Below, piece by piece: positions 26,548 through 54,621 of a stretch of 64,000 bases of DNA. Source of the stretch: Octopus vulgaris (taxonomy: Eukaryota); the NCBI GenBank assembly GCA_951406725.2, contig OX597824.1:68324001-68388000 (forward strand), in the 5' to 3' direction. Numbering within the stretch: the stretch's first letter is position 1; every line of letters begins with the position of its first letter. Position numbers and translations under genes: made by a program. The notes under the pieces were generated by a model. That model ran no database searches and was not told the DNA's origin. It worked only from the letters and a program-made list of their open reading frames with translations.

Positions 26548-26582
<35 letters not shown>

Positions 26583-28450: not shown

Positions 28451-28564
<114 letters not shown>

Positions 28565-29259
28565 GTGAGAGAGAGAGGAATAATATTATGCTACTAACAT
28601 AATATCTTTAACATTTTATGTCCATTTTCCAACCTTGCATGGGCTGGATACTTCTTTTACAGAACTGAGTTCTACTGTTCTTTACAGTTCTTTGTCATTT
28701 CCTTCATGATTTCCCTTTCTTGTGATGATCTTTACCTTGACTTCTGTCTCTCACAGGCTTTCCTCCACTTGAATTTCCTGACATTTCTTTACTCAACTCT
28801 CATTCTTTATATGCTTCACATGTCTGCACCAGCTCTGTCTTCTCCTTTGTCCCATGCATCAGATTCCATTTGTACCTAGCTTTCCTCTCGGCTCATTTGC
28901 AATCCATCATCCATGCGATAAATGGTGGCTGGAATCAAATAAAACTGAGCATGCTCATCTGATTTCTTTCTAGCTCTCACACATCCTTTGCATTCAATGG
29001 CCAAGTTTCTTTTTCATACAATATCACATTTCATATACACGTATCATACCACCTACTCTTTACTCAGTGAGAGAAGACCTTTATTGCCAGCAATAAAAGG
29101 ATTCTTACTCTAGCTACTAGAGACTATCAGAACATCCTTCTCCACTCTTAGACCAGTTACATAATAGAAGCTGTCAACTATTTCTAGGGATCCCTCATAA
29201 CATATAAATTTGTTTTTGTCAGTTTGTCTGTGATCCCACTGCACCTCTTATTTACAACG

Positions 29260-29287
29260 GGTGGTTGTAGGTGTAGTTGTAGTAGTG

Positions 29288-29327
<40 letters not shown>

Positions 29328-29400
29328 CAGTAGTGGTGGTGGAGGTGGTGGTGGTGGTGGTAGTAGTGGTAGTAGTAGTAGTAGTAGTAGTAGTGTGGTA
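29260..29400. repeat. (GGT)n/(AGT)n triplet repeat
   Basis: Direct reading. Complementary (ACC)n/(ACT)n tracts occur at 39787-40260. Confidence 0.9.
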
Positions 29401-30189
29401 TTACAGTGCATCACTGCATTCACTGTTTGTTGGAGATTCTCTACTCCTGGCAGATGACACCCTTGCACCACTCAGGTGTTTCCTTGGGTACGTTGTTGCT
29501 GTTGAGGGTTTTATGAGGTTAGAGTGAAAATTCTACCCCAGCTTCTTTTAATTGCCTTTTACAACTTGCAGAGGAAATGTTGGGTCTATTCTTTGACCTA
29601 CCAGTCTCCCCCACAGTACAATGGATACACCTTATAGGATTTATACCTACTCATTCTCTGCACATCAAACATGGCCTCTTCCCAGGAAGCAATAGAGTTC
29701 TTTCTGTCCTTTTTTTTTCCTGCTAACTAAAACTATTGCCTTTGTTATTTTTACTTGAAGACCGCTCATTTGTAAGCTTTGCTTCCATGTTTGCAATTTC
29801 TTATCTCAATATTCAACAGAATCAACTGTTAGAACAAGGTCATCAGCATACAAAAGTTCTCACAGACAACCAGTCTTAATCTCTTTTGTTTTGACCTGGA
29901 CAATATAATAAACAGAAGACTGGGGTCTAGAATGAAACCTTGATGGTTAACTACATACACACTAAATTCCTCACTAAACAATTTACTAACTCTCATATTG
30001 CTAATACTATCTTTGTACATGGATTGCATGGCTCTCACTAACCTTTTGTCTTCACCTAGTTTGTTTACTGACCAGCAGAGTACAGAACATGGGACTCTGT
30101 CTAAAGCTTTCCCCAGTGAGTGATAGACATAGTGACTTGTTTTTGCTTTGCCAAAAACCTCTTCTGTAGTTCTTTGTTTCTTTGTCGTC

Positions 30190-30740
30190 CTTTTCAAGCC
30201 TATCCAGACTCATGGGCCTGGTTTCCCAGTTTCTGTGGTGTATGTGTTCCCCCAGCTGGACGGGACGCCAGTCCATTGCAGCGTTACTCAAGAAACAAGA
30301 AGAGAGAGTTAGAGAAAGTTGTGGTGAAAGAGTACAACAGGGGTTGCCACCACCCCCTGCTGGAGCCTTGTGGAGCTTTTAAGTGTTTTCGCTCAATAAG
30401 CACACACAATGCCCGGTCTCGGAATCGAAACCGCAATCCTCCAACCACGAGTCCGCTGCCCTAACCACTGGGCCATTGCACCTCCACAAATGTTCCTTCT
30501 CGAGCCATGCCAGATTCATAAGGGCCGGTTTCCTGGTTTCAGTGGTGTAGAAATTCCCCACCTGGACGGGACGCCGGTCCGTCGCAGGATTACTCATTTT
30601 CATCAGCTGAGTGGACTGGAGCAGCGTGAAATGTAGTGTTTTGCTCAAGAACACAGCGCATCGCCCGGTCCAGGAATCGAAACCACAACCTTATAATCAT
30701 GAGTTCAACACCCTAACCACTAAGACGCACGCCTCCACCT
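30190..30740 (-). mobile_element. Cluster of nested family-C-like tRNA SINEs inside the RTE
   Basis: Two heads, ...cctaaccactgggccattgcacctcc (to 30486) and ...ccctaaccactaagacgcacgcctcc (to 30737), with shared body ggtttcctggtttc..ctggacgggacgcc. Confidence 0.8.
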
Positions 30741-31651
30741 TATGTAGTTGTACCAACCTGAAATGCATCTCATCTAAGCTAATTCTTTTCCTAATTAGCT
30801 CTGTTTTATCTCTCTTTGTCCCTACTATAACATGGTCCGTCAATTTGATGCCTTTGTAGTTGCCTCTTTCTCTCTCTCTCTCTCTCTCTAGCACATCTCT
30901 TTTACCCTTGTTGCAGGTAATGATGGTACTGCTGTGCCACTGCTTAGGGATGACCCCTTCCTTAACTGCATGATTATTGATTTTGCAGCTATGCCCTATT
31001 TTACTGGACATTCTCAATATTTCAATGGCTATCCCCAATGTCCTCACCTTTGTATTGTTAATGTTCTCTGAGTTACAGCAATGTCTAAGTGAAAAGTGGA
31101 AGAGGAATTGAGCAATTTCAAATATACCATACAATATTAATATCCATATATAACTAGTTATGGTAATTATATATCCACACACACACACATATATTGATAT
31201 TGTGTGTGTGTGTGCTTCAGCTCAAGGCAGTGCTCCAGCATGACCTCAGTCAAATGTCTGAAACAAGTAAAAGAGTAAAAGAATATATATCTTTAGATTA
31301 TGGAATTGTTGCAGCTCTATAGTGTAAACATAACCAAGACCACATACTTAACATGACACCAGAAGTTGCAGTTTTTTTTGTCTGGGAAATATCCCTTTAA
31401 AGACGTGTTAAAAAAAACACAATATTCTTCTGAGTTGGGTAGAACAAAATCAAATTGAGGGTGATTGAAAGTTTCAGATGCTGTATATCACTGTACTTGC
31501 AACTTATCAAAACCATGCCCTCAACTCGCTTCCAAAACGAAATCAAAGTCTCTAGTCTTAAGTATATAGAAATAGTGCATATATTATTTGCTATGGTGCT
31601 GCTTAACTAGAATAAATTCAGGTTATACAATTGAAGCAGCTCTATAATGTA

Positions 31652-32043
31652 CTAGCAGTATCGCCCGGCATTGCTCAGGTTTGTTTTGACCCTTTAGAAT
31701 TGGAATTTTTGAAAAGTAAAAATTTTGCATTATGTAACTTGTTATACTCTTTAAGTGAACATTTTTCTGGTTGAAATACATCGAAAAATGGCGACACACC
31801 AGTAAAAAAATCATAAAAGATAGGGATTTTCATAGCAAAAAAGCACCTTTTTGATGTAAATAATTTTTGGTGTTAACATGGTCCAATTTGAATTTTATCT
31901 ATTACGGAATGAAGAGCAAGCCTTCTTCTATCATGCTCTCAATTTTGGTCAACTTGCACCGCAGGGTCTAGGAGGAGATAGTGTTAGTTGAAGGCTACCA
32001 AACCTGCCATACACAGACAACTTCAGCTTTATATATATAAAGA
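31652..32043 (-). mobile_element. Non-autonomous Helitron-like element
   Basis: On the minus strand it begins 5'-TC (a|TCtttatatatataaaagctgaagttg) and ends ...gcaatgccgggcgatactgCTAG|t, with a GC-rich subterminal tract and an A|T insertion site. Confidence 0.6.
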
Positions 32044-32554
32044 TTTATATGCATATATTTATGTATGCATGCATACACACACACATTCATATATATGCAC
32101 AAAGACAAAAGCAATTATAATTTTAAAAAAATCAATTTACACTGTTTTTCTTCTTACAATGTATTAAATTCTTTGTTTATCTGCCAATTTATTCCTTCAT
32201 TATAGTTTTCTATTTAAATTAATTTTCAACACTTTACCAGAATATTTTAGAATGCATCATGCGCATGGTTTAAACTACTTGCTGAATGCTTCAGTGTCTT
32301 AAAGTGGCTCGGTCTTGCCTAATAGCTAACATTAATTTGCGTCCAACTTGCGTTCGTTATGTTTATTTATCTATTTACCCATTTACTTCTTATCGATGTG
32401 GTTTTACTTGGTTACAGCATGTACGTCACACTAACAGTTTCACTGATAGTAGTAATGAGTTATTCTGAATACAATGTGAGTTGATTACATGGCACCAATT
32501 AATATTGGTTGCTAATTAGAAATAGAACGATGGGAGCATTGTTTTTTTCCATAT

Positions 32555-33530
<976 letters not shown>

Positions 33531-34381
33531 TTAATTATCAGCTATTTCTAAATCATAATTGATATTGATTATCTTCATTTCAGATCGTTTTAAAGGAAGA
33601 AAAAGCAAAATCTTTCACAAAAAATATACATCAACATCATCATTATCACCAGTCGTCATCATTGTCATCATCATCATCGTCATGTTGATGACAATGATGA
33701 TTTTCATTATCGTTACTATCACCAACCTCATCATCATCATTTCTATCCATTTTTATCAGCTAAATTAATATTCTATGTGTGGAGGCAAACTGTGTGTATG
33801 ATGGCTTAGGCATGGGGACCACCAAAGCACTTCCTAATATTTGTTTTCAGATGTGTGAATATATACATATAAGTGTGTGTGTGTGTGTCTATTCATTCAC
33901 ATGCATACATACATATACATATATATACAGACATGTATATTTACTTGTGTCTTGCCATTGAAATGTAGTCAGGATGGGGATATATGGATATGTGTGTGTG
34001 TGTTCTTTATTTTGGGAGGTGGGAATACAACAGCAGCCTCTCAGTCACCTCTAGTTTCATCACTAGCTCTACTGGAGCTAAATTCAGATTGTTCTAGAAG
34101 ATGTATGCATAGAATTGGCATGGACACCAAGAAAATTATCAAAGAAAATCCCATTAATATTATATAACTTGCATGCATATACATAAATTCATTCAGTGTT
34201 ACATACGCATATATACACCTTACCACTACTTTGTATAAAAAGGCTCTAGATAGTGATATATTGTCTATGTGTGTGCATTTTTAGACACATTCTAATTATC
34301 ATAATTAGTATGCATATCTTGTGCCTGCATGTGTGTGTGTGTGTGTGTGTTTTATGTGTGTATATACACACGCACTCCCTC

Positions 34382-34836
34382 TAAACCTTTAACACTTACA
34401 CTGGTCATATCAGACCCAAACATTCTACCTGTTTTATGTTCAAAGAGGCCAGATCCAGCATCTTACACCTACCCTACAATGTCGTTCTAAAATTTAAAAC
34501 GATCACATATCATTGAAATCTCGATGCCACAAGATAATGCGTGATTAATTCAAAAGAATGTGATTAAATAAGCATTACATTTGACAGTGTCATCTGAATG
34601 CCTGAGGGTTAACAGTATCTCTTAACTCTTTGGCATTTAAAGCAGTCATATCCAGCCCAAACATTGTGCCTGTTTTATATTCAAACAGCCATATTTGGCC
34701 TCTCACACCTTCCCTACAATGTCATTCTAAAATTGAACTACCATATCACTGGAATCTCAAAGGTATGAGATAACGCATAATTAATTCCAAATAACTTGAA
34801 TAAATAAGCACTACATTTGACATGCTAAAGGGTTAA
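34382..34836 (+). mobile_element. Two tandem TTAA-flanked MITEs (piggyBac-like)
   Basis: Termini ttaac(t/c)cttt(a/g)gcatt...atgctaaagggttaa. Related copies at ~24245-24685 (SINE-interrupted) and ~41001-41228 (inverted). Confidence 0.65.
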
Positions 34837-35069
34837 AACTTCATATCAATACATGCGGTGAAAAGTTGGGTGTTCGTCTGTCTGACTGTTTGCCTTTCTG
34901 TCTGTGTATCTTAGTAGCTGTCTGTCTGTCTATTTGTTTATCTAATCTATCTATCACTCTATCAATGTCTGTCTGTCTCTCTTTCTCTTTCAGTTCACCT
35001 CTCTATTCATATCTGACTACTTATCTCCCACTGTATCTATTTTTACATACGTGTGTGTATATATATTTG

Positions 35070-35104
<35 letters not shown>

Positions 35105-35246
35105 ACACACACACACATATATACATTCTTACATACACACACATAATTATTATATATACTTTATACTTATACATGGTTGTGTGTGTACATTGGTATTTAC
35201 CTGATTTAATAACTAGATGTGGTGACCAAACCACTCTTTGATTGAC

Positions 35247-35326
35247 AGGTGCTTGTGTAATCTCAGCTGGTAATATATGAGTGGTTCAATCTCTCACCGT
35301 TACTTGCTGTGGTTGAACTATCACCT
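35247..35326 (+). ncRNA. mir-216: pre-miRNA, MIR-216 family paralog 1
   Basis: 5' arm TAATCTCAGCTGGTAATATATGAG (35258-35281) carries the miR-216 5' sequence UAAUCUCAGCUGG. It pairs with CTCACCGTTACTTGCTGTGGTTGA (35293-35316). Basal stem aggtg/cacct; CNNC motif (catc) about 18 nt downstream. Confidence 0.9.
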
Positions 35327-36900
35327 TGCCAAAACATCTCAACACTCATCAATATCCTCAAATCACAGATTTTGTTATTTTTTTTCAGTTTTCTTTGTTG
35401 CATGTTCTTTTATTACATTGTTTTTTTTTTCATTTTCTTAATTTTTATTTTGTTTTTTACTTGGTTATTTTCATTTATGTTTGCATTTTTGTTTTTTGTT
35501 TTATAATTTTTTTTTTTTACTTTTGTGTTCAGTTTCTGGGTGTTTACATAAGTGAGCCACACATTCATACATATGCATATGCTCACATATGCATGTGTGT
35601 GTATGTGTGTGTGTGTGTGTATCGTTGATATGTAGAGAATTTAGAAATTTTCAGAGAATGGGAAGCAAAAATTGGTTTTTGGAATAGTGAAACTCAAAAC
35701 AGATAAAACTATAAATAATAGCATTTAATATATTGGATGGGAAATGTAAATGGCTGCTTATGGGACACATCTGTAAACCCACATCCATAAACATGACAGA
35801 TATCCTACCATAAATATATACATACATATATGTGTATGTATGTATATAAACACAGCATCTTCATCATCATCATCATTTTAAAGTCCGTCTTTTTTTTCCA
35901 TGTGGGCATCATCATCATCATTGTTTAATGTCGACCTTCTGTGCTGGCATGGTTTAGACTGTTTGACAAGAGCTGGCCAAGCAGAAGACTGCACCAGATT
36001 TCTGTGTCTGTTTTAGCTCGGTTTTTTATAGCTGGATGCCGTTCCTTACACCAACCACCCTGCAGAATGAACTGAGTGCTTTTCACGTGGTACCAGCTCA
36101 GGCAGGTATGGGATGAACATTTTGACAGGATCCACCAGGTCAGATGACCACGTTCTGCTCCACTGTTTCAGTTTTGGCATGATTTCTATATCTAAACGCC
36201 CTTCCTGATGCTAACTACTTTACATAGTATACCAAGTGTGTTTTACTTTGTTTTTGTTTTTTTCACATGGCACAACCCCTAGTAAGGTTGCTTTGTAATC
36301 TGCAAGTCAAAGAACCCCGACGACTGTAGGGTCGTATGGGAAACAGAGTGCTTGATTTAATCAAGGTATTAAGAAGCTGGAGTATGATGGGAGGAGGAAG
36401 AACTGGTTTATTTTTGTGGGTGATAGTCATGGCTACCTTAGATTTTATATGGTTGGAGTTGTGCCTGAAAGAAAGGTTAATATAGTGGTGACAAAGTGCT
36501 GGAATGTACTCTGAAGGAGAACTTGTCCAAGAAGATGAATTGAAGAGAATGTGGAAACTAGAATTAGAGAAAGGGTGGTTTAAAGATGCATATGGTTGGA
36601 GAGTGAGGGATGGACAGAGCTATTGGGTAGAATTGGTTCAATTGTGTATTGAGGAGAAATGTGGTAAATGGTGTGACCAGTGGAAAAGAGAAAGACAAAG
36701 TTGATCTTGATGAGGTTGAATGTAATTGATACTCATCCTGAATGATGTGGAACAGTGTGCTTGGGTAAGATTTTATGAATATCAGTCAATGGAGAAAGAA
36801 CAGGGTTAATGACCTCGAGTAGTGTCCTAAGCTTATCAGATCTGTTGGATGATTTTGGATGAAAGGGGAACCAGAGATACAGTCTAAATGCTTGCAATAT

Positions 36901-37072
36901 AGGCGCAGGAGTGGCTGTGTGGTAAGTAGCTTGCTTAACAACCACATGGTTCCGGGTTCAGTCCCACTGCGTGGCACCTTGGGAAAGTGTCTTCTACTAT
37001 AGCCTCGGGCCGACCAAAGCCTTGTGAGTGGATTTGGTAGACGGAAATTGAAAGAAACCCATCGTATATAGG

Positions 37073-37122
<50 letters not shown>

Positions 37123-37325
37123 CGTATGTGTTTGACCCCCCTAGCATTGCTTGACAATCGATGCTGGTGTGTTTATGTCCCCACCACTTAGCGGTTCGGC
37201 AAAAGAGACTGATAGAATAAGTACTAGGCTTACAAAGAATAAGTCCCGGGGTCAAGTTGCTCGACTAAAGGCGGTGCTCCAGCATGGCCGCAGTCAAATG
37301 ACTGAAACAAGTAAAAGAGTAAAGA
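36901..37325 (+). mobile_element. SINE family A, young full-length copy
   Basis: aggcgcaggagtggctgtgtggtaagtagcttgc...gactgaaacaagtaaaagagtaaagag. Further copies at ~37830, 38625, 44300, 52425, 53840, 59272-59645 and 60332-60710. Confidence 0.85.
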
Positions 37326-38508
37326 GTAATGAAGGGAGTGCCACAAAAGAAGGCACCCAACCACTAGGTACTTAAGTAGAATGATATACATATGAAATCT
37401 TACCTGGTAAACAATAATTACAGTTTGCACCTCATATAGAAGCCCTGCTGTTCTTCACTGGCTCAAAGCAGTGCATATAATTCCTAATATCCTAATATTT
37501 ATCTGGTTTGATTTAACTTCCACCCCTCCACCAAAAAAAAAGTTTCACTATTTATGTTAAGGGTATCCCACAATGGATTATGTCATGTTCATCGTAGTCA
37601 TTTCTTGTGTTTTTCTTTTTTCTTTTTAAATTTATTGTTTATTATTGACTTTTAGCCACAATCATTCATGTCTTGTCTTGAATGGCACTCACATTCCAAT
37701 GGCATTCCTCTTTAATACTGATTACTTTATGGTTCTACTGTCATTGCTAACTGTAATGAAGGATAAGCATTGATCAAAATCTTCACCTCTTGCAGTCTTT
37801 CGCAACATTGACAATCATTTGCGTATGTGGGTGTATGGTAGGTAGCTTGTTTACCAGCCACATGGTTCCAGGTTCAGTCCCACTACGTGACACCTTGGGC
37901 AAGTGTCTTCTACTATAGCCTCGGGCCGACCAAAGCCTTGTGAGTGGATTTGGTAGATGGAAACTGAAAGAAGCCCGTCGTATATATGTATATATATATG
38001 CGTGTGTGTGTCTGTGTTTGTCCCCCAATCATTCATTTCTTGTCTTGAATGGCACTCACATTCCAATGGCATTCCTCTTTAATACTGATTACTTTATGGT
38101 TTTACTGTCATTGCTAACTGTAACGAAGGATAAGCATTGATTAAAGGCGGTGCTCCAGCATAGCCGCAGTCAAATGACTGAAACAAGTAAAAGAGTAAAC
38201 AAAACATTTACAAGTTTTGTTCACCTCAGATATCGCTGACACCCAAAATGCTTCAGCAACATGCACTGTTACTGCACCAACTCAGAGCAGTCAGCAGTGA
38301 CTGTTTCTTAGCAATGCAACCCAAAATACCAAACGTGTGTCGTTCTGCATTATACTGCACATTACAGTTGCCATCTGCTGCTGATGTTGTTGTTGCTGAT
38401 ATTGGTGTAGAAACAGTTAATTGACAACATTCACTATGGCTACCTTTTCTCTAACTGCTTGTACCTGTGCACACACTATGTGTTTGTGTGTATGTGTATG
38501 TATGTATG

Positions 38509-38539
<31 letters not shown>

Positions 38540-39016
38540 TTACCTGTATGTATATGTGTGTGTGTATACATGCCAGCATGGAAGGTGGACATTAAATGAT
38601 GATGATGATGATGATGATGATTATATATGGCTATGTGGTTAAAAAGCTTGCTTCCCTGCCCATATGGTTCCATTCCACACCACCTTGCACATGTGCCTTT
38701 TGCTTTAACCATAGGCTCACCAAAGCCATTTTCAGTGGATTTGTAAATGGAAATTGAAAGAATCCCACCGTGCATGTGTGTGTGTGTGTGTATATACCCT
38801 TGACATTATGTGATAGTTGTAAATAAGCATCACCATCATACAAGGGGTGTTTATTTCCAATCTTCTATGAAAATTGTCTTGTCATGGAGAAATCTAATGA
38901 AGGTTGGTGACAAGAAGGGCATCCAACTGTAGAAAAAAAATCTGCCTTAACAAATTCTCTCTCCTTCATGTTGGCATGGAAAAGTGAACATTAATTCATG
39001 ACGATGATGATGATGA

Positions 39017-39047
<31 letters not shown>

Positions 39048-39693
39048 GCACATATATATGTATGTATATATATACATATATATATACACATACACACACA
39101 TACATGGAGGGGTGCAGGAGGTTGGCCAGATTAAAGCTGTCTTTTGTTCTAATCATAGCACAATTACTTCTCTTGAACACTTCCATTGTCTAATTGGCTG
39201 GTAATTAACATACATTAATTATTCTATGTAAAATAATAGATATCAAAATTTCAGTTTTGTCTCCACCCATTCCTCCAATTCATCATCTCACCCCCACCCC
39301 CAAACACACACACTCACTGCTTATTTTTTTTCAGTTTTGCTCATTTCACCAAAATCATCAACAATCATCATAAGTTAATTATTTTACTTTGTAGCTATGG
39401 CTACAGTTAAAAAAAAAAGAGAAAAAAATGCAAATTTTTCAACACATTCCACAAGACCCCATTTCAGCCATCTCATTTTCCACTACGGTACGCCTGGCAC
39501 TGGAAAAACTTCTGTGGTGCTCCCTCCCGCTGTTGCCCAAAGCATGTGCTTTTATTTTACTTATTGGTTAATCCGAGCTAGTGTGTGCATATATATTTAT
39601 GTCTATATATAATGTAAATAATAACATGTATGTTTATGTATTGTTTTTTTTTTTTTAATGTGCGTGTGTGTGTTTATAATCCTTTTTTTGATC

Positions 39694-39763
39694 TTTGTGT
39701 AATCTCAGTTAGTAATTCCGAGTGGATAAGATAGCCTCAAGTTACTAGCCGAGATTACATGAA
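39694..39763 (+). ncRNA. mir-216: pre-miRNA, MIR-216 family paralog 2 (miR-216a/miR-304-like)
   Basis: 5' arm TAATCTCAGTTAGTAATTCCGAG (39700-39722) pairs almost perfectly with CTCAAGTTACTAGCCGAGATTAC (39736-39758). CNNC motif (cagc) at +17. Confidence 0.92.
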
Positions 39764-42700
39764 TGTCTCAGCTAACAGCATGAATCCACACCACCACTAC
39801 CACCACCACCACCACCACCACCACCACCACTACCACCATCACTGCTGCCACCACTACCACCACAATATTTGCTACTGCTGCTGCTACTGCTGACACTACC
39901 ACCACTACTACTACTTTTGTAATTACGTAAATGCTTTGCTCCACCCCCTAAAAATAATTGGTGAGAACCTGTAACTGCTTCCCCACCATCTTGATTACTA
40001 CTACTGCCCAAAGATGTTAGACCAGGTTTCATGAATGCCTCAATAAATAATATGGACCTATACTGCTGCTGCTGCTACTACTACTACCACTGTTACTACT
40101 ACTACTACAAGATATTAGCCAAGATGACAAGAATGCTTCACTAAAAGACATGAAACACACCACGCTACATGAGTTCACCAACTTCAGCACCACCCTCACC
40201 ACCACAACTACTGCCAGCACTATCACTACTACTACTAGACACCATTATTACAACCATCATACTTAGCTTAGTTTCAAATCTCTGTGATCTTCTCCATTCA
40301 TAACCTCCTCCATCACCTCTTGAGCTGATAAGAGAAATTTTATATAGTCGCTTGAGCTGCTAGAAACGGCAACCAAATTCCCTGCACTAGTACACTGCTG
40401 TCTTAGCAGAGGATAGAATACCCTGGATAGTGTAATCTTAGATGTACAAAAAGAGACTGGATGGTCACATATGGAATGCATTCTATTGAAGTTCTTCTCA
40501 GGAGCTGACATGGGAGTAACCATCACCACCAACACTTGTGTTACCATTTAGTTTGTTGCAATGGTCAGTTTCGATACCCAACTTTACTACCCTAATGTCA
40601 GGGTAACTTTGCCAATAAGGGGTAAGGACAGCTTGATCAGCAGAAATAGTGGTTAAATCTTCCTCAAATCACACTCTTCTTTCAAATGGAGGGATACACT
40701 GGATAGTGTAGTTCAAGCTACACCATGCCAGAATAAAAGGTCAGGTGATGGTCTTTTACCTTTGACCATTAGTCTACTTGGTCAGAATTTAACGCCAATT
40801 TTCTTGTGTGATTAGTTAACTTACTTTAGTAAACAGACAAATTACATCCTTCATAATGGATAATGAACTGCTAGGCGCACTGCATCTGAAAAGTTGGGAT
40901 GGTCATGGTTGGAATGCCATTCTCCTTAGGTTTGTTTGTTTAGAGCACTGCATAGGTTTTGGCTAGCCTGTTCCATAGTCAAATTGGCTGTCTCTTTCCC
41001 TAACCATTTAGCATTCAAATCATTCTGTCATATGTAATGCTTATTTACTCATGTTGTTTTGAATTAACCATTTGTTATCTCATAGCTCTGAGCTCTTGAT
41101 GATGTGATTGGTTATTTTTAGAGTGACATTATAGGGTAGCTGTGAGAGGTTGAATCTGGCCAATTTAAAAGCAAAACAAATAAAATATCTGAGCTGGATA
41201 TAACTAGTTGAAATGCCAAAGGATTAAATATAATGTATCTTCACCATATTTTTGCCTCATCCAATCACCAAATTGTTCACTGTGTAATTCTGTACGACCC
41301 TCGTTTCCTGCATGCTCACACTTCTATATTGATTGATCTTGGAGGCTAAACAAGAACATCAATAGTGACTAAGACAGATACATTGCATCTGGGAAAAAGA
41401 GGTGAGACGGTTATGGTTGGACTATATTTGAATGTACATCAACTTGATTAGGGCTGACCTGGGGCTAAACATCATCATCATCAACAACAACATATGCTGT
41501 AACAGTTATAACATATAGATGAAACCCTTGAAAATAATTGTTGCATTGAGGTGGAGATGAGAAGGTGGTGAGTCCTGGTCTCAGGGCAATGGCATGTAAT
41601 GAAAGGCTGGGAAGAGTCTGTCTGCAGTTTGGTAATCCTACCCAACCCATGGCTATATGGTAGTATAAGACAACTGGCATACAAAGCTCTATGTTGGCCT
41701 GCTGGAAATAACGATTGAAAATCTCCCTGTCAAATCTCCTTCACATTAATGTCTTAGCTAACAGCTTATACCTTCACCACCACTGCTGTCAACGTAGCAC
41801 CACCACCACCCTAAACAAAAGATGGGCTGGTCATGGTTAAGAATGCCATTGATCATGGGTTTGCTTGATCAGAGCTGGCTTGAGGTTAAACAGGAAGAGC
41901 AATAGAAATGATAAAACCTTTTTGATGATGATGACGATGATAACGATCCTTTGTACTTGCATATTCTCAGTTTACTTATTTGTCTGATCACTCAAAACTG
42001 GAGACAAAAACAAAATAAAACAGAGAAACAAACAGAGTACAAGATTGATACCAGCTGAGAGACACCTGGTTCAAATCCAGTTGTGGAGCAGTACACATAA
42101 TTTTTACATGTCCCTCGATTCGCTTTGCTTTTACAAGTAATACAAGAGGGTAACCTACACCTAAACATCTGAGAATGTCATCTGAAGGTAACAAGCAGTC
42201 TATACCAGATGAAACATTATCTCTTCATCCCTTCATTCAATTTGTCTTACCTATCAGGGCTTAGCCCCTTTCGCAGAGTGGGGCACCCATTTCTTTTCTC
42301 CCCTGGTCCCTCAGTGTCTACAGTAGCAGCTTCATTTTTATGCACAGCATTATATGATCCCATGCATGATGTATTACGGTGGTTATTTTGTTTTCAACTT
42401 TAAACATTGTTTGATTTATTTATTTTTCTTTTGTTTGCTTTTGAATTGAATTTGTTTATGTTATGTTATTTCCTTTTATTTATTAATTAATTTTGTTTTG
42501 GTTTTTCTTGTTAATTTTGTTTTTTGTTTCATCCACAAAGACAAACATGTTCACTAATGTTTTATAATATAATATAAAACATTATATAAAACAATGAGTA
42601 TTGTGGCCAAACTATTTTTACGTATGTATAAAATGTATGTGTGTGTGTATAGCCAAGATAAGCAGTTGGCAGAAATGAAAGAGTTTCAGTGTAAGAATTT

Positions 42701-45700
42701 TAATTTTTACACCTCCTAGCATTTCATTTCTCCTTCCTATATTCTGAGTTCAATTACCACTGGTGTTGACATTTTTTTTTTTATCTTCTCTGGGGTCAGT
42801 TAAATAAACAACAGTAAATTATTACTATGTTCCATGATATTAATAAATTTATTAACCATACTACCTCTTCCTCACTGGTATTGTGATTGCCGCAAGCCCA
42901 AAGAAGCCAGTGTTGAGTTGCACTACATAAGCACAGGGTTGTCTTCATGGTTTATTGGATGTAGAGTCTTATTCATCTTATAAAGAACAAAATAACAGTA
43001 ATGTAGCCTTAGATCAAAACTGTTACATCTGTACCCATCACATCTTTTTTCTATTTTTCTTTCTCTTTTCTTTTTTTTAAGATTGCAAGTTGTGATCTCA
43101 AGGAGAGTCGGGGGCTATTTTTAGAGATATAGACCCTCATGTAGCAGGAATGTATTCATATTCTCCATAGTAACCAGTGGAGTAGCATATACAAATAGAT
43201 TTAGAATGTATAAGAAATTTGACTCGCTTGTGTTCTGATGGGATGGTTATTTTCTTTAGCCCATTGATTTGAATAATTCTTCACCAGTTGAGACCCCCTT
43301 CAGTCGTGACTGACCATGGGATTGCACCGAGAAAGTTACCCTCGCAGGCACAAGTCCAGGCAAGGTTGTTTATGGAAGACCAGCAGTCGCCCATGCATAC
43401 CGGCCTCCCCTCTCCACACCACCAGTGTTATCCAAGGGAAAGGCAAAGGCCGATACAGCTTGGCACCTGTGATGTTGCAACTCATTTCTACAGCTGAGTG
43501 AACTAGATCAACGTGAAATAAAGTGTCTTGCTCAAGAACACAATACGCCGCCCCGGTCCGGGATTGGATCTCATAACCTCCCAATCATAAACTCGATGCT
43601 CTAACCACTGAGCCATACACCTTCACAGTAACACGAACATAACATTTTGTAGACAGACACCATTGCATTGCATTGCATGTATATGTATTTATTTCTGCAT
43701 GAAGTTTGTTTTGCATGAGAATTTATCTGAGCATGTTTTGTCATCCTTTCCTGAAGTTAATGCTTTTGACAAGAAGAGAAGATGGGTAACTGGTGAGGGT
43801 GTGCTTGGGATTTAGAGCTTCACTGTAAATTCATTTCCCATACTGGCACAGGTTTAACAGGTGAGCAGGATTTGAGTTAAACCTAATTGGAGTTACTCTC
43901 ATCCTAAATGATTGGAGACCTCATCTCGCTCAGAGATGAGACTCTGCCAGAAAATTATAACTCTGATTATCTATGACAGTGTTGGTTTGGTTACATTCCT
44001 GTGAACTTAAATCTTCCAACCCATGACAGCATGGAAAACAGACAATAAATAGTGATGATGATGTCACCAGTCACATGTTTAATTGCATGCAAAGTTGTCA
44101 GCTCCTCACAGTTAAATATTCTTGAAAATTGATTAGGTTTGACTTGATTATACAACACAACTTGAGATTATCAGCAACATACTTAAAGATTATCAGTGAT
44201 ACAGCTAAAGATTATCTATGACTGACTCAAGTGACATGACAGAGTTTGGAAATCTCTGATCTAGATTATCAAAATAGTAAAATAATAGAGTAGTCTAAAG
44301 TGTGGCTGTATGGTTAATAGATTGCTTCCCAACCACATGCTTTCAGGTTCAGTTCCACTAAGTGGACCTTGGACAAGTATCTTCTACTATGGCCTCTAGC
44401 CATCCAAATCCTTGTGAGTGACTTGGATAAATAGAAACTGAAAGAAGCCTGTCATTGTGTGTGTGGGGGGGGGTCTCCTTGTCTTGACATCATTTGATGG
44501 TAATAAGTAAGCTTCACCATCATACAACAGTATCATTTGTTTCAAGTCTTCTTTGTAAAGACGTCTGGCCATGGGGAAATGTTACCCGCTCAGAAACAGC
44601 TGAAGGTTGGCAACAGAGAGGGCATTCCACCTGATACATGCAAGCACGGCAAAATGGACAATAAGATGATGATGGTGATGAGCAAATTGAGCAGATTGTG
44701 ATTGTTCTTAGAGTTAGTGACAAACACCCTGATCCTAAAACCCAACTTAACAAGGAAGAATAGGGTAATGGAAGGGTAGTGATGTTTATGCTTTTCCCAG
44801 AGGGTACCTGCAAAATCCAATGGTGTGAAATAGCTATTCTACAACATATGAGAATATGTCTTTGTATAACCATCACCTCCTACTCAATGTACAACATTCG
44901 AAATATTGTGTGAGACAAACACTGATTCAGGGTAGATTTAATTTGATTTATCTGCTGTAGCAGTAGCTACTTGGGTGGAGTGTGTGTGTGCATGTATGTG
45001 CGTGTTGGGGTGTGGGATACTTGGTTATTGTTTCTATTGTCTTTGTACCTGCCGGGTCAGGTGTGTTAGTTGGTCAAAGGGCTAGGGGTAGTCCATATAC
45101 CTATGACTCTGCACATAGACCTATGATTCTGCGGGCCTGGAAACCACATGTCATATTCCTAATTGTAGGGGTAGTTGTATGGGGTGTAGTGTGGCTGGTT
45201 GGGCCTGTATTCTCCACACGCACACTGACTGCCATATCTAGTCTTGTGACAGTAGCTATTACTATTTCTTCTTCTTCTTCTTCTTCTCCTCATCCTCCTC
45301 ATCCTCATCCTCCTTCTTCCCTCTATCTGCCTCATCTCCCACCCACCCTCTACTGCCTCATTTCTCTCTTTTTCTCCATCTTTCCTCCTCCTCCCATGTG
45401 CTCTCTCTCTTCCTTTCTGCCTCCTAACTTCTTCCTCTCCATTGTGACAAATTAACTCTCCTGCCCAGGAACATGATGGCTCCCTTTTGTTGGCTTTCTC
45501 ACAGCTTCTCTCTCACACTTCACTCACAAGCCAAGTTTTTTTTAAGAAAAAATTTATGTGGTATTTGACTGGAATTTTTTCTCCTCTTCCTGGGTGGGTA
45601 ATATGGCCATAGTTTTTCCATACCTGCCATCTCTGAAAAGCACATGGTATTAGATAACCTTTCAGTTCTCCAATATTTGTATGCGAAACTGATTTGGTAA

Positions 45701-45780
45701 GACTGGCTGCAACAGATACACAACACTGTATTCTTTGGTTAATATACATACAGGCACACACACACACACACACACACATT

Positions 45781-45898
45781 AAACAAGAATGTTGTTGAAA
45801 GTGACTTTGAACTTTCAGCCAATTAAGCCATTGTCAGACTGCCAACGATGGCTTAACTACCCAAATTTTCGAAGTCACTGTCAACAACATTCTTGTTT
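45781..45898. repeat. 118-bp palindromic element with decayed hammerhead-like motifs
   Basis: Arms aaacaagaatgttgttgaaagtgactttgaa and ttcgaagtcactgtcaacaacattcttgttt (2 mismatches), plus inner ttaagccat/atggcttaa. Confidence 0.8.
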
Positions 45899-46973
45899 GA
45901 GTATAATGTATACTCTACAAAAGTATAGAGTAACCCCTTAAAGTAATGTAAAATTGTATTTATTATAACTGAACATAAAAATAATTGTTAGCACATACAT
46001 ACATATATACATATGTGTGTGTATGTATCACCAGTTCTTATTTCATCACTGCCCCTGGGTTGATGAAAGACAGTGTCAACATCAATAGGATTTGAACTCA
46101 GAACATTTAAGTGGATGTAAATTAGTCTAAGGATAATTTTTGTACTGTTTTCTACCAATTTTGTTCCAGGCATTTTTTAAACTGATTTTATTTTATATAT
46201 ATTTATACTTTTTGACAAGGTACAAGATCATATTCGTTTCTTATTCTATTTAATTTGTTAATTTGAATGGAGAGACATAATTAATTAAAAAAAACTAATT
46301 GTGTAACAACTTTAACCTCTAAACCATCCTACAGAGAAGTGTGCCATAATAAGGTAATGAGTGACATAATGAGATAATGAGGCTACTTCTACATGGTCAC
46401 TCAATTTGTTAGAAATAGCAGCCAAATTGTGGTTGGCATATTTTTTAAGAAACATAAAGCTTATATGTTTCTGCTATTTTTGAAAATAATCTAAGAATTT
46501 GGAGGAATTTAGTAAAATAATTAAATTTTCTATTAAGCCAATGTTTGGATTTTGAGATTAAAACTGGAGATTTTAATAGAAATTTGAATGTTTTAGAGTG
46601 GGTGGTTTTGTAGCTTAGAACGAGATGTCCTTCTTTTGGGTGGGTTGGAATCAAAAGGTTTGTGTACCTGACTCTTTGTGATAATTAAAAATGATAAAAA
46701 GAAAAGAGGAACATTAGATTAATTTAGAGGTAAGCTATTTCGAAAGATGGGATGGTCATGGCCAAAATATCTTTGATGAAGGTTGAACTGATGCTAAACA
46801 ACAATATGATGATTACAACAAGCACCACCAAAAGAACAAGAACAATGACATCTGTGGAAGATATTTCAATGTTTGATATGATTTGCTCAGCCCAGTCTTC
46901 CTCCTCTTCCCTTGGTCCCACTGACCCACCCACCCTGACCACTCCAACTTGGTTTGACGTTGATATTTTTTTT

Positions 46974-47062
46974 TGCCGATCTACAAGCTGTGAGTATTAC
47001 ATCAGGTACTGATTCTTTTGTTGGTTTAGTACATTTTGTAATGCTTGCAGTGTGTATCGGCA
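46974..47062 (+). ncRNA. mir-12: pre-miR-12
   Basis: TGAGTATTACATCAGGTACTGA (46991-47012) is the protostome miR-12 mature sequence. Star arm AGTACATTTTGTAATGCTTGCA (47028-47049); basal stem tgccgat/atcggca. Confidence 0.96.
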
Positions 47063-49424
47063 TATCAGACTGCAACATTAGAAGTATTGGTAACAGTTTT
47101 GGAAAGTACCGTGATCATCCCGCTACCAAAAAATATAAATGTTTAAAAGGAAATTGCACTCACATTCATAACCCTTTATCTCTCTTTCTCTCTCTTTCAT
47201 TCTTTCTTTCCTTCCTTCTTTCTTTCTTTCTTTCTTTCTTTCAAGCAGACCCTCTAAAAAAGCAAAACAGAAAAGAGAGGGCTTTGCCCCTTTCTCCTTC
47301 CACCTGATTTTTTAATGAAGTTTTATGGCAGTGTCAGTAAGCAGGGTTTTTTTCTTGATTTGCCATGTCATTATCAACCCGTTGTAAATCAGGGCCTGCT
47401 TAGACCCAAACAACACGCACCTGCTTTTGGTCTGTTTATGACCTAACTGTGGCTTTGTGGTGACATCACATCACTGTTACACTGCCCTATCAAATGGTTT
47501 TTGTGACTTGGTATTCCTTAGTTCTGACAATGTGACTAACATATTTCACATCAAAGAAAGAAGTAAACAAAATGAAAGAAGAAATTTATTATGAATGATG
47601 AGGATAATTATTATTTTTTTTACTGCCCAAAAGGGTGATGGGATGAGGGCAGTTACATGGACAGATTATAAAAAGTTGAGCAGAGGTACACAGATACTGA
47701 GTGGATAAAGAAAGAGAAGTGATGATATTCACTGTATGATAGAAAGCCCAGATGAAAGGGTAGCTGCAGCCAGCTGTATTCTCTGGCCTTCAAGTGATTG
47801 CTGAGAGTTGGCCCCTTCACACAGTCTATTTTTGCCACTCTCCTTTACATCATCATCAACATCATCAGCATCATCTCATCATCATCATCATCATCATTAT
47901 CATCTATGTTCCATGTTGGCATGGGTTGGACACTTCCTAGGAAATTTACTGGAGAGTAACGCCTCCCTTTTTACCCTTGCACTCCTTTCTGAGTGAAATT
48001 TGAAAATATGGATGAAGCCCTTGACCTAACAGAAAAGTGTTTATTTTCAGTCCTTTTAATATTGCTCACCATACAATCTCTTTTATTGTGGCCACAAGAT
48101 GACACAGAACTACTGGCCCTTCACCAAACAAAGGCAGTAGAGCTATCCTGACAATAAATTCAGCATATATTTGTTAGCATACTACATGTGACAGCAGCCA
48201 TTTGACATTGCTCTAACTTTACAAGTCAGCAATGCTCAGTGTGAGCACATCAAGAATGGTTTCGTTGCTCTGTGTGATATTGTAGACACTTGGCTATTAA
48301 CACTGCTGTGTGCATAAAATTTTATCACAAACCAGCAATGAGTTTTCTTCCTTCTCTGATAGCACTACTGAGCCAGAAATTTCTGAAGGTTTTCCTTGGA
48401 CGGAGTAACCAGAGCTGGCACGCTAGGGGAGCTGCACCACACTCCAGTTTGATTTAGCATGGTTTCTACAGCTGGATGCCCTTTCTAATGCCAACCACTT
48501 TACAGGGTGTTCTGGGTGCTTTTACGTGGCACCATATGAGCACTTTTACATGGTACTACACGAGTACTTTCATGTGGTATGGGTGCTTTTACATGGCCCC
48601 ACACAGATGCTTTTATGTGATTCAGCACAAGTGCTTTTACATGTTTCTGCATGGGCACTTTTATGCGGCACTGCATGTGCACTTTTAAATGGCATCACCA
48701 TGAATGCATTACACCTTCAGAAGGATCAGCCTTAACTCTTCTGCTGCAGGGTGTGGGTCTTCTTGAGTACATCTAGGCACCGGGTATCTTGGTCCTTTGT
48801 CATCTCACCTAAAAGGCTCAGTATCCTGAGGTCTTGTTCTTCTGTACTTCATCATCCAGTGATAGAGGATTGTGAACTCCTGGCAATGTTGTTGATGCCA
48901 GCTTTCCACCACGACTATACTGAATGATGTTTCTACAAAGACATATAGTCTAAGGTTGACCTGGAAGCAAAGTGTCTAACTGTTTATCTATGTGCTTGTG
49001 TGTAATAATAATGGGCTTATTATTAACGCCTGTTCATTTGAAAGTGAGTCTATGTAGACCTTCATATATAATGCCTATATACGTATATACTGGTCTTTGT
49101 CAACTTATGACTACAGTTGGTTCTGACTGATTGGTTGTAAGTTGGCCTATAGGCCTACATAGCTTTGTTTTATATTTTTATATTCTTAAGGTACATTCTC
49201 AGGTAAAAGTCACACACAGCATTCTGTATTATACTATTATACTGGCATTGGTCAAAAATTTCGGAGTTTTAAGCAGCTGTCTTATAAACAAATACGAGGT
49301 TGCCTCGATGGCTCTTTGACAGGGTAGTCATCCTACGCAGTTGCAATTGGTAACCAAACCTAGGAGAAGCATTTGTTAGCTGACATCATCCATAGACAGG
49401 TTAATTTCTCAGAAATTAAATCCA

Positions 49425-49461
49425 TTATATATGTACATATGCATATATGTATATATATATA

Positions 49462-49509
<48 letters not shown>

Positions 49510-49655
49510 TATATATATATATGTATATATATATATGCATTTATATGCATATATATATATATATGCATGTATGTATATATATGCATATATGTATGTATAT
49601 ATATGCATATATGTATGTATATATATGCATATATGTATGTATATATATATATATG

Positions 49656-49701
<46 letters not shown>

Positions 49702-50018
49702 TATATATATAATATATGCATATATATATATGTGTGTGTGTGGGAGGCGCAATGGCCAAGTGGTTAGGGCAGCGGACTCGCGGTTTTAGGATCGCAGTTT
49801 TGATTCCTAGACCGGGCGTTGTGATTGTTTATCGAGCCAAAACACCTAAAGCTCCACGAGGCTCCAGCTCTACTCTTTCGCCACAACTTTCTCTCACTCT
49901 GTCTTCTGTTGGCCTGCTCACTTAGCCTGCGCGGTGGCGTCATCAGAAGACTAAAACAATGCAAAGCACATTGTGACCAACGATGTGTAGCAACATCTGA
50001 AAGCCTGGTCGGTCACGG

Positions 50019-50101
<83 letters not shown>

Positions 50102-50373
50102 CATATATATATATGTACATATGTATATATATGTATATATGCATATATGTATGTATATATGCATATGTATATATGTACATACATATACATATGTATATAC
50201 CTATATATATATATATATATATATATACATACATGTACACACACACACGCATGTGAGTGTGTGTGTATATATATATATGTATATATATATGTACATATAT
50301 ATATATATATATAAATGTGTGTGTATATATATATGTATATATATGTACATATATACATATGCATGTATATATG

Positions 50374-50431
<58 letters not shown>

Positions 50432-50441
50432 TGTATATATA
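49425..50441. repeat. Compound (TA)n/(TATG)n microsatellite flanking a SINE
   Basis: Direct reading of the sequence. Confidence 0.95.
49743..50020 (+). mobile_element. SINE family C inserted in a TA microsatellite
   Basis: ggaggcgcaatggccaagtggttagggcagcggactcgcgg head, the same as the 25679-26064 copy. Related copies at 43288-43625(-), 58705-59025 and 61050-61360. Confidence 0.8.
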
Positions 50442-50839
50442 TTTAATCAGCAAAGTTACAAAATGACTTGAGGTCTGAGAATTTTGTGCTCAAAACTCAA
50501 CCTTTGTGTCACTTTGTAACTTCTGCTGATTAAAAATGTAAAATATATATATACTTGTTTCTTGAGTTCTATTTACACTGTTTGTATTACCAGAGCTGTA
50601 TTAGTTATGCATATATGTGTGTGTATATTTTTGGATTTGCTTTGCTAGCATATATTTGTGCATAAATACTTGTGTATTTACTTGCTTAAGTTTGCCTGCT
50701 TTGATTTCTTTGCTTATCTTCCTGCTTCTATAGATAGATAGATCTGTTCAGATCTGCATGTTAATATATCTTAACTTGCTTTGATATATATAGAGCTGCT
50801 TAGTCTTGTCTTTATTTATGGATCCCTTACATTAATGTT

Positions 50840-51010
50840 TTGCCACGGCTCTCGACAAGAGAAGCAGGGTGCTGCAAAGGTGCCATCACGGTGGCGGAAG
50901 TGCGGGACGCAATGGCAGAATACTCGAGGCACAAATCGCTGGGTTTGGATGGTCTGCCCTACGAGCTTTACAGTTGTATGCCAGATTTGTTTGAAGATGT
51001 CTTGGCAGCA
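50840..51010 (+). mobile_element. L1/Tx1-clade LINE ORF2 fragment
   Basis: GC-rich island encoding PRLSTREAGCCKGAITVAEVRDAMAEYSRHKSLGLDGLPYELY, which carries the KSPGxDGLPxEFY motif that precedes the RT domain. Confidence 0.8.
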
Positions 51011-51162
51011 ACAGAAGTCTGTCGTGATTTATTTCCCTTCACAACACCATCCACACTTCCTGTGAAATGAGACAATTGGGCACAGCTGTTTGGCATAGCT
51101 CAGTGGATATTGCACCTGTTTTGGTGACAGTATTTTTTAGCACTGGAAGCAAGTGCACACAC

Positions 51163-51219
<57 letters not shown>

Positions 51220-52975
51220 CACACACACACACACACACGCACTAACTCGTGTGTGCATAGAAATATACTCATACAGAGAGTGTGAAAGAGAGTGACACTA
51301 AAAATTATTCATCAAACATGATTGACATAAACACTTTCCATCTCCTCATACACATGAAGAAAAATATACTCTCATAGAGAAAGAGAGAAAGATAGGGGGA
51401 GAGTGTGTACGTGCATATGTGTCTGTGTGAGTGAAACATTGAAATAACTGTCAAATAAGTCAGCATCAAATCAGTGCTGCCAAAATAGCTCTGCCAGTCG
51501 CCTCCAAGTTCTTCCAGTACTGTTTATGCCCAAGTTCTCTGTATTTGATACTTATTATCTCCTAAGATTATCTTACTTGGTTCTTCAGATAATTATTTTG
51601 TTTCTTGTCTCTTATTTAATGCTTTTTTTCTCTTCTTACCTTGAAACACGAAATCTTCATAGTTCCTCTCTCGACTCAAACAGGAATTTTAAAATAACTT
51701 CTTTGTTTTAATATAATTCTCACACTTACTATAAGTCCCTAACTGCTAATTTTTTTCTCTTCAGTCTTTAATAGATTTTAGATTACATTTTGCTTCTTTG
51801 ATCATTTTACAGTATTCTGTTCAAATTTTCAAATTCTTTCTTTCTTTATTTATTTATTTATTCATTTTTCTTTTATTTATTATTTTTCTTTTATTTATTA
51901 TTTTTCTTTTTTTTTGTGTGATATTTTTATTTCTATAGTTTGCTTCCAAGTCAATTTTAAATTAAGTCACTCTCCTGCAGCTAAGTTTAGCACTGCTCCT
52001 GTGATCTTGTTAATCTTACGCCCCCACATTGTCCCCGGCTCATTTTCTTCCTTCTTTCATTATTAAACTGTTTTTTTTTTTTTTTCTTTTTAAACCCACT
52101 TACAGACAAGATCAAAATGATTGAACCAGATTTATGAACCTGAAAATTAATGACTTAATAAATAAACATATATATGCCCACAAATACACACACACACACA
52201 CACAGCTATATTTACACTGACATTTACACACATGAATATACATACATGCATGCAAACATTAATTAGTCAGTTTTTCTGCCCACATAAAAGGAAAAAGAAA
52301 CATAGTTTACATTTCACTGGGAGCTAAAATAGCATCACATTATTAAAAGCTACAGCCTACGTTTCACTTTAAATTATACATTTGTATGCACATATTCATG
52401 CATATATTCAGTAGTATGTTTAGATGCAGCTTGGCCAAATGTTTAAGAAGCATGCTTCACTATTACAAGGTCCGTGTTCAATCCTGCTGTATAGCATTTG
52501 GGGCAACTGTCTTTTGCTATAATCTTGGGTTCACCTGAGCCTTTAGTGTAAAACTGGTTTGATGGAAACTGTACTGAAGCTTATCATATGGATTGATTGT
52601 TTGTGTTTCTCATTCAAAGGCCCAGTTTTGTCATACTGTGTCATGCAGATTCTGCTTCAGAATTATTATTATTATTATTATGTTTACAGTTGCTTACATT
52701 TTTTATTTTTTCCGTGAATTTTTCACAGATCCAACTAACTATTATTATTAACCTTTAATCTGTATGTTTGTTTCAATCACTTGCCGAGACACACCCAGCG
52801 TCCTAGGGGCAGTAGCAAAATATCTTCATGTAATACAACTCAGACATTTAAATTGATAGAGCTTTTCTAAGTATGTGAGCAGTACTTGTCAGCACAATCT
52901 TTTGGATTTCTCTGAGACATGGTTCTTCTAGAATGTTATCTTGATGTTTCTGACATCCCTTTTTTATTATACCTA

Positions 52976-53014
<39 letters not shown>

Positions 53015-53726
53015 GAGTGATGAGGTGGTAGAATCTCTAGAGCAGCAATAAAAAATGCTTTGCGGTATTTGTTCCTGCTTTTTAAGTTTTGAGTTCAAAT
53101 TGTGCCAAGGTGAACTTTGCCTTTCATCCCACTGGAGGGATAAAGTTTCTGTCAAGTATAGGACTTGATATGAACAACTATCCCTCCCCTCAAATTCACT
53201 TAATGCTTAGCGGTATTTTGTCCATCTTTTCATTCTGAGTTCAGATTCCGCCAAGTTGACTTTGCCTTTCATCCTTTCGGGGTCTAAAACAGACTAAAAT
53301 GAGTACTAATCAAGCACTGGAGTTGATGTAATCAACTTACCCCTCCCCTGAAATTGCTGGCCTTGTGCCAAAATTTGAAATTAATTATTATTGATATTGT
53401 TTTAAATTTTGTCTTGTTATCAGGTTCAAAGCTGACTGCTTAATTATTAATTATTAAACTCGATAATGTCTTTGCCCTCTTCCACTAACTCGCCCAGCTG
53501 TCTGGAATAAGATTCCAGAACTGCAAATGGAGAGAGAGAGAGAGAAAGAGGTTGAGAGAGAAGAGCATTTTTAACCCATGCATGCTTTCCTTTCAGCTAA
53601 AAATTAAATATAACTTCCAATCCACGTCTTCTGGGTTTTTTTTGCTTTTTCTAACCCATATGCTTCTTTTTATTTTTTGTCAATATTTTATGTTTGTTTT
53701 ATGTTTTGTTCTTTTTTTATCTTGAA

Positions 53727-53830
53727 CATATTGCTTCAGCTGTGCATATACTAAAACTGGAACAATACAGGGAAGGTTTGGCCCCTGCAGAATGATGACA
53801 TGCTAATTTGTGAAGCATTCCATATTCTTT
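53727..53830 (+). pseudogene. U6: U6 snRNA pseudogene
   Basis: Near full-length colinear match to U6 (GCTTC...CATATACTAAAA.TGGAAC.ATACAG.GAAG...GGCCCCTGC...GATGACA.GC.AATT.GTGAAGC.TTCCATATT). ACAGAGA box is mutated to ACAGGGA, the catalytic AGC triad region is deleted, and CpGs have decayed. Confidence 0.88.
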
Positions 53831-54506: not shown

Positions 54507-54541
<35 letters not shown>

Positions 54542-54559
54542 GTTATTATTATTATCATA

Positions 54560-54621
<62 letters not shown>

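Follow-up and report, generated by a model that had tools for sequence, protein, structure and literature searches.

MicroRNAs of the MIR-216 and MIR-12 families have an established connection to the golgin gene TRIP11. Table 2 of PMC11848845 gives the pairs 216~trip11 (Bilateria), 12~trip11 (Protostomia), and 217~trip11 (Chordata); the species treated there include Drosophila, Ixodes, Crassostrea, and Lottia, and cyclostomes are described as keeping Mir-216/217 in trip11. A "12_216" cluster is reported to be conserved among protostomes, namely annelids, molluscs (including Nautilus), a brachiopod, a planarian, and arthropods (PMC12257675). The clusters of fly and mosquito have orthologous flanking exons (PMC2430712). 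Other work cited on these microRNAs comprises PMC6828783, PMC4043116, PMC3150300, PMC4238352, PMC2394756, PMC4019659, and PMC1388199, and the preprints 10.1101/2025.02.25.640161 and 10.1101/2024.12.01.626237.

We analyzed a stretch of 64,000 nucleotides of Octopus vulgaris DNA, termed the window, in which a first-pass annotation had placed three microRNA hairpins within an intron of TRIP11. These very probably represent the ancient MIR-216/MIR-12 cluster as it exists in the octopus, with three sense hairpins in one TRIP11 intron that are likely processed from the TRIP11 transcript. The microRNAs, the cluster, and the host link are already in print, and the octopus offers an unexceptional example of this old arrangement. 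The features are as follows.

1..64000, + strand: middle of the TRIP11/GMAP-210 golgin gene (host), from tblastn, splice sites, and the open spliced frame
16898..20158, + strand: large coiled-coil coding exon, TRIP11 residues 526-1612 (protein P0001), boundaries defined by tblastn
28119..28218, + strand: TRIP11 exon ending after E1798 plus one base; GT donor at 28219
28219..64199 (past the window end), + strand: host intron, phase 1, GT-AG, 35,981 nt
35246..35328, + strand: pre-miRNA of the MIR-216 family with a P2-type seed; 5p arm from 35258
39688..39770, + strand: pre-miRNA Ovu-Mir-216-P2d; 5p arm 39700-39722, loop 39723-39737, 3p arm 39738-39759
46975..47061, + strand: pre-miRNA Ovu-Mir-12; mature 5p arm 46991-47012, star 47028-47049
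64200, 65504, 71772, and 76453 (window-extended coordinates), + strand: starts of downstream TRIP11 exons; stop at 76803

The start of TRIP11 precedes the window, and the four final coding exons of the gene are found 200 to 12,803 nt beyond the window end. The large coiled-coil exon is 99.8% identical over 1,087 residues to a protein labelled Octopus vulgaris TRIP11. The best database matches of the host protein are likewise named TRIP11 and range from molluscs to vertebrates, and a dipteran protein (P0104) aligns to octopus TRIP11 at 24% over 408 residues (E 2e-20). The host intron lies between E1798 and V1799, with its AG acceptor at 64199, and is the largest of 13 introns measured, the 12 others being about 1.1-8.3 kb. 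GT-AG splicing produces a frame that stays open to the stop at 76803 and recreates the C-terminus of the database protein; the junction of 28218 to 64200 is predicted from the protein. Exons found by tblastn, splice sites, and the open spliced frame thus bear out the earlier proposal of TRIP11 as the host of an intronic sense cluster. With the predicted junction, the gene would resume at 64200 and extend beyond 35 kb.

The GRAB domain (PF10375) matches residues 1820-1860 of P0001 weakly, at 20.8 bits (E 3e-4) against a cut-off of 26, and the Daphnia ortholog passes this cut-off. A Pfam search of the genome gave no GRAB match, as two exons share the domain; tblastn recovered these exons downstream of the window. 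Pfam searches of four ORFs of the window returned nothing informative.

Each of the three elements folds as a single hairpin. The predicted energies are -27.7 kcal/mol at 35258 (z -3.25; 1 of 200 shuffles as good), -30.0 kcal/mol at 39700 (z -5.75; 0 of 200), and -41.4 kcal/mol at 46991 (z -7.93; 0 of 200). Rfam calls mir-216 at 35.9 and 31.2 bits and mir-12 at 36.3 bits. All three octopus hairpins miss the gathering scores of these families (53.5 for RF00654 mir-216 and 55 for RF00751 mir-12), and the mir-12 score is also missed by 11 of 12 miR-12 hairpins of other animals. Covariance models made from non-octopus hairpins only (18 MIR-12 and 22 MIR-216 sequences) give 42.4 bits at 35258, 57.1 bits at 39700, and 51.8 bits at 46991. 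After these, the best sense-strand match scores 11.3 bits with the MIR-216 model when the intron is scanned, and 14.7 bits with the MIR-12 model; with these models, no further member of either family was found in the host intron. Strand, fold, and model scores therefore support the hairpin starts at 35258, 39700, and 46991 proposed in the first-pass annotation.

The claim of an exact miR-12 at 46991 was also correct. The 22-nt octopus arm is identical to the curated sequences of O. vulgaris, Platynereis, and Lottia, and its 20-mer occurs once in the 2.8-Gb genome when up to one mismatch is permitted (reversed control, 0). Across the hairpins of 18 other animals, 91% of cells are paired in the MIR-12 precursor, compared with 27-48% in slid controls. 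The comparison with cephalopod entries of MirGeneDB that had been suggested was run, and two of the three hairpins match O. vulgaris rows: that at 46991 agrees with Mir-12 and that at 39700 with Mir-216-P2d. In the curated Mir-216-P2d row, the 3p arm (39738-39759) is given as mature and the star cell is blank (PMC12553114), which corrects the first-pass annotation. Compared by eye among the curated rows, this 3p arm is identical in octopus, two chitons, and a scaphopod, and the octopus 5p arm differs from those of the two chitons and the scaphopod at three positions (PMC12553114).

Among the listed rows of the PMC12553114 supplement that were compared, none was from O. vulgaris for the hairpin at 35258. 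Set by eye against the Nautilus P2c row, this hairpin is similar in its loop and 3p arm, and from this likeness in sequence we infer that it is likely Mir-216-P2c, called P2j in older naming. Table S4 of PMC9699675 gives read counts for Ovu-Mir-216-P2j and -P2k. Expression of these microRNAs in O. vulgaris is taken here from print (PMC9699675, PMC12553114).

Could the three hairpins be chance folds, or inverted repeats that stem from repetitive DNA? All of them fall under the Rfam gathering thresholds, and other windows of the intron, sampled at a coarse 15-nt step, fold about equally well, one of these being a dispersed repeat. However, such an origin is contradicted by the matching curated rows for Mir-12 and Mir-216-P2d and by the published read counts. 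It is equally at odds with the single copy of miR-12, with scores of 42-57 bits from independent models, and with the conserved context described below. We regard it as having almost no chance of being true.

Two other kinds of candidate were discarded. A hairpin at 50449 with 32 pairs was considered as a fourth microRNA and proved to be a dispersed inverted repeat with 39 matches. Rfam matches to "mir-297/466/3149" are TA/CA microsatellites.

Hairpins embedded in longer transcripts are released by Drosha and Dicer, and Argonaute uses the resulting guide RNAs to repress target mRNAs. In the octopus, the TRIP11 promoter would presumably drive co-transcription of the three hairpins, Drosha and Dicer would release them from the TRIP11 transcript, and Argonaute would take up the guide RNAs and repress other mRNAs. 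Regulation of the host itself finds no support: the three seeds have 0, 1, and 0 sites in the 4 kb past the TRIP11 stop.

It is also conceivable that the cluster has been kept in the TRIP11 intron for historical reasons and is transcribed mainly from one or more intronic promoters of its own, independently of TRIP11. There is ample room for such promoters: the first hairpin lies 7.0 kb into the intron, and the hairpins are separated by 4.4 and 7.3 kb. The tissues given for Mir-216 are non-neuronal ones and the hepatopancreas (PMC9699675), and passages cited on the fly cluster describe uncoordinated expression, with miR-283 not co-expressed with miR-304 and miR-12. Moreover, gnathostome Mir-216/217 outlived the loss of the host (PMC11848845), and promoters of their own are frequent in old intronic microRNAs (30-62%, as quoted in PMC11848845). 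However, all 20 of the TRIP11-bearing loci described below have the cluster on the same strand, and the intron is shared across phyla, as would suit a cluster that depends on its host. Independent transcription is therefore a doubtful account, albeit one with a real chance of being correct, and we favor processing from the TRIP11 transcript.

To place the octopus intron among those of other animals, metagenome contigs were scanned for the miR-12 arm, which gave 51 loci in 20 hairpin groups. A TRIP11 C-terminal profile matches 20 of the 51 loci, representing 12 of the 20 groups, and the 73 TRIP11 domain matches at miR-12 loci all lie on the miR-12 strand, with none on the opposite strand. In nine loci (five groups), TRIP11 exons lie to either side of the cluster, the first ending close to residue 1798 and the second beginning close to residue 1799. 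A phase-1 donor was read in all nine of these loci and an acceptor in seven, those of L039 and L072 being left out. Daphnia has the cluster in the same phase-1 intron, seen from both sides, and the insect-like loci show it from one side each.

A C-terminal protein tree took in 12 of the 20 TRIP11-bearing loci. It joins L030 with Daphnia (100), L044 and L037 with insects (98 and 96), and L055 with bivalves (100); L052, L053, L059, and L071 are annelid-like with weak support, and L032, L038, L046, and L047 are unplaced. As judged from these alignments, an intron of the same position and phase holds the cluster in an ecdysozoan (Daphnia) and in lophotrochozoans, with insect-like, bivalve-like, and annelid-like DNA among the carriers. 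The terms "intron position" and "homologous intron" are absent from the main text of PMC11848845, and a literature search, which was thin in subscription papers, found no published statement of exact intron homology across phyla.

The remaining 31 of the 51 miR-12 loci have no TRIP11 match. Eleven of these either are of insufficient length or come from groups that longer contigs place, and 15 others that look related lack both MIR-216 and TRIP11 in up to 10 kb of sequence on one side. In L061 and L077, miR-12 adjoins a homeobox gene, not TRIP11. The link of miR-12 to TRIP11 is thus common, not universal. The last three of the 31, L041, L050, and L073, which had been considered as insect miR-12 with long loops, lie inside bacterial genes and were rejected as chance matches.

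The octopus cluster is long. From the first 5p arm to the last 3p arm it measures 11,792 nt, with successive 5p starts 4.4 and 7.3 kb apart; the corresponding spans are 1.6 kb in fly, 2.0 kb in Nautilus, and 4.4 kb in Tribolium (PMC12257675), and 7.4-8.0 kb in our insect-like loci. The first-pass annotation attributed a length of about 11.8 kb to insertion of transposable elements and microsatellites. The size was right, but stretching is only partly shown, in that recognizable repeats cover 29% of the span (interspersed 21%, tandem 11%), a lower bound for which interspersed repeats were counted by matches within about 250 kb of genome DNA. Repeat cover is 44-48% in two flanking control stretches and 16-34% in other stretches of the intron. 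Repeats contribute, and the cluster span is not unusually repeat-rich. The intron may simply have grown passively in a repeat-rich genome. The same annotation remarked that the cluster exceeds a 10-kb cut-off. This is true end to end, but the point is moot, as neighboring hairpins are 4.4 and 7.3 kb apart; in addition, a 50-kb window has already been used to define clusters (PMC12257675).

Curated rows distinguish P1 members of MIR-216 (miR-283), with the seed AAUAUCA, from P2 members (miR-304-type), with the seed AAUCUCA (PMC12553114). The 5p arms of both octopus MIR-216 hairpins carry AAUCUCA. Thus the proposed identity of the pair with miR-283 and miR-304 fails, as does a one-to-one order with fly 283-304-12, for no miR-283-type (P1) copy was found. 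What does hold of the proposed conservation is the host, the strand, and the order of families, MIR-216 and then MIR-12. No P1-type (AAUAUCA) hairpin was detected in the host intron, nor at the 28 genomic pattern matches that lie outside the window, which score at most 15.5 and 12.3 bits. This genome-wide search used one degenerate 17-nt pattern (30 matches; reversed control, 20) that would overlook a P1 copy if it had diverged or fell in an assembly gap.

Nautilus has P2j, P2k, and Mir-12 within 2.0 kb, and the order in Capitella is P2c-P1-P2d-12 (PMC12257675); a P2-P1-P2 order of three copies is also present in loci L053 and L071. The simplest reading would be an ancestral order P2c-P1-P2d-Mir-12, from which P1, the miR-283 ortholog, was lost on the cephalopod line.

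An alternative is that miR-283 (P1) has its true ortholog in the first octopus hairpin, whose seed turned into the P2 type, and that the fly order 283-304-12 was kept one-to-one. The hairpin stands first in its cluster, as P1 does in arthropods, bivalves, and Platynereis, and a single seed base separates the two types. Also, the P1/P2 split of our hairpin tree (92/89) collapses once the three seed-defining columns are dropped, so the paralog history rests mainly on seed and curated names. However, the curated names give cephalopods two P2 copies (PMC9699675, PMC12257675, PMC12553114), and P2 stands first and P1 follows in L032, L038, L046, L052, L053, and L071. With the seed columns removed, the first octopus hairpin still groups, weakly (83/83), with the first-position P2 of L032, L038, and L046. 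A converted P1 is therefore improbable, and we retain loss of P1 as the preferred reading.

The position of miR-12 after MIR-216 raises a side question about MIR-217. Set against the mir-217 consensus of Rfam, octopus miR-12 agrees at 15 of 18 mature positions and at 17 of 20 overall, on the same arm with an offset of 4 nt. None of 40,000 motif shuffles reaches 17/20, and each of the 20 hairpins compared agrees at 15-17 of 20 positions. The MIR-12/MIR-217 pair was hand-picked for comparison, and the seed-offset comparison uses what we take to be the mature start of miR-217. Both MIR-12 and MIR-217 stand after MIR-216 in trip11-hosted clusters (PMC12257675, PMC11848845). This match, the shared host, and the shared cluster position suggest one origin, in which MIR-12 of protostomes and MIR-217 of chordates would be a single ancestral hairpin whose seed shifted by ~4 nt, and a MIR-216 + MIR-12/217 pair would have occupied this TRIP11 intron before the protostome-chordate split.

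Several results argue against one origin. The mir-217 model scores octopus miR-12 at 19.7 bits with a nonsignificant E of 0.23, mir-305 outscores it on the same sequence at 28.1 bits, and none of 12 other loci matches mir-217 with an E of 5 or lower. Common descent differs from the account in PMC11848845, where MIR-12 and MIR-217 are two independent births in one host. We found no published statement of a relation between MIR-12 and MIR-217 in a literature search that was thin in subscription papers. We consider a single origin possible rather than probable; if true, two family-origin markers of microRNA phylogenetics would merge.

As such, the octopus loci matter little, since they re-find curated microRNAs and a host link that appeared in print in 2025 (PMC11848845). 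Our additions are small: the trip11 link reaches a cephalopod, intron position and phase are common to the octopus, Daphnia, and a number of further protostomes, and the octopus appears to be without a miR-283-type seed. The TRIP11 intron can serve as a landmark for annotating MIR-216 and MIR-12 in new genomes and for spotting lineages in which miR-12 has left its host.

Compared with the known systems, the hairpins at 46991 and 39700 are the same as the MirGeneDB O. vulgaris Mir-12 and Mir-216-P2d (P2j/P2k in older naming), with no difference. The families, host, and sense strand are those of the pairs 216~trip11 and 12~trip11; the Fig. 1 legend of PMC11848845 names no cephalopod, and the octopus adds one. 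The octopus span is about six times longer than that of the Nautilus 12_216 cluster (PMC12257675). Like Drosophila mir-283/304/12, the octopus cluster is intronic and in the sense orientation, with MIR-216 before MIR-12 and Gmap/TRIP11 as host. However, the fly has P1-P2-12 over 1.6 kb, whereas the octopus has P2-P2-12 over 11.8 kb, and a miR-283-type seed was not found there. As in Daphnia, the octopus cluster uses the same phase-1 intron of TRIP11.

Comparison of the golgin gene TRIP11 with five protein sequences (P0001-P0005) points to candidate alternative exons, one of them in L002, the genome stretch downstream of the window.

7102-7308, + strand: 69-codon TRIP11 exon, present in P0002-P0005 and missing from P0001, the reference for residue numbers
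L002 about 5457-5513 (window-extended 69457-69513): match (74%) to the C-terminal 19 residues of P0003

The exon at 7102-7308 is possibly alternatively spliced. The 19 matched residues form the divergent end of P0003, and the L002 stretch could be an alternative last exon, after the exon for the C-terminal GRAB domain.

Two other small elements are a copy of an RNA gene and a hairpin.

53724-53829, + strand: U6 snRNA copy (66.1 bits), within the same TRIP11 intron as the microRNA cluster
50449-50530: 32-pair hairpin, a dispersed, MITE-like inverted repeat

The U6 copy, which has 4 nt deleted and an altered ACAGAGA box, is likely a pseudogene. The inverted repeat has 39 matches in the genome.

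Table S4 of PMC9699675 reports A-to-G editing of the Ovu-Mir-216-P2k 5p arm at "position 7," at up to 4.8% in the axial nerve cord; a passage in that paper's text states 4.8% as the upper limit for seed editing. On the basis of the order in Nautilus, this microRNA is probably the hairpin with its 5p arm at 39700-39722.

The miR-12 hairpin (46980-47060) also resembles the Rfam models for mir-305 (28.1 bits) and mir-217 (19.7 bits). Among metagenome contig loci carrying the mature miR-12 sequence, some lie outside the usual host.

L061:8512-8532: miR-12 hairpin adjoining a homeobox gene of the opposite strand
L077:10001-10021: miR-12 hairpin, likewise adjoining an opposite-strand homeobox gene

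The DNA around both is animal and gene-dense, and neither TRIP11 exons nor MIR-216 were found nearby. Fifteen loci with related miR-12 hairpins (L029, L033, L034, L048, L049, L051, L054, L056, L058, L060, L063, L066, L067, L068, and L076) show neither MIR-216 nor a TRIP11 exon in the stretch of up to 10 kb to one side of the hairpin; L068 carries two miR-12 arms spaced 427 nt apart.

At L032, L038, L046, L052, L053, and L071, the order of MIR-216 seeds (P1, miR-283-type; P2, miR-304-type) is P2-P1 or P2-P1-P2. Such varied orders would fit the loss of different copies from a state with three, and those at these loci differ from the P1-P2 order of arthropods and bivalves.
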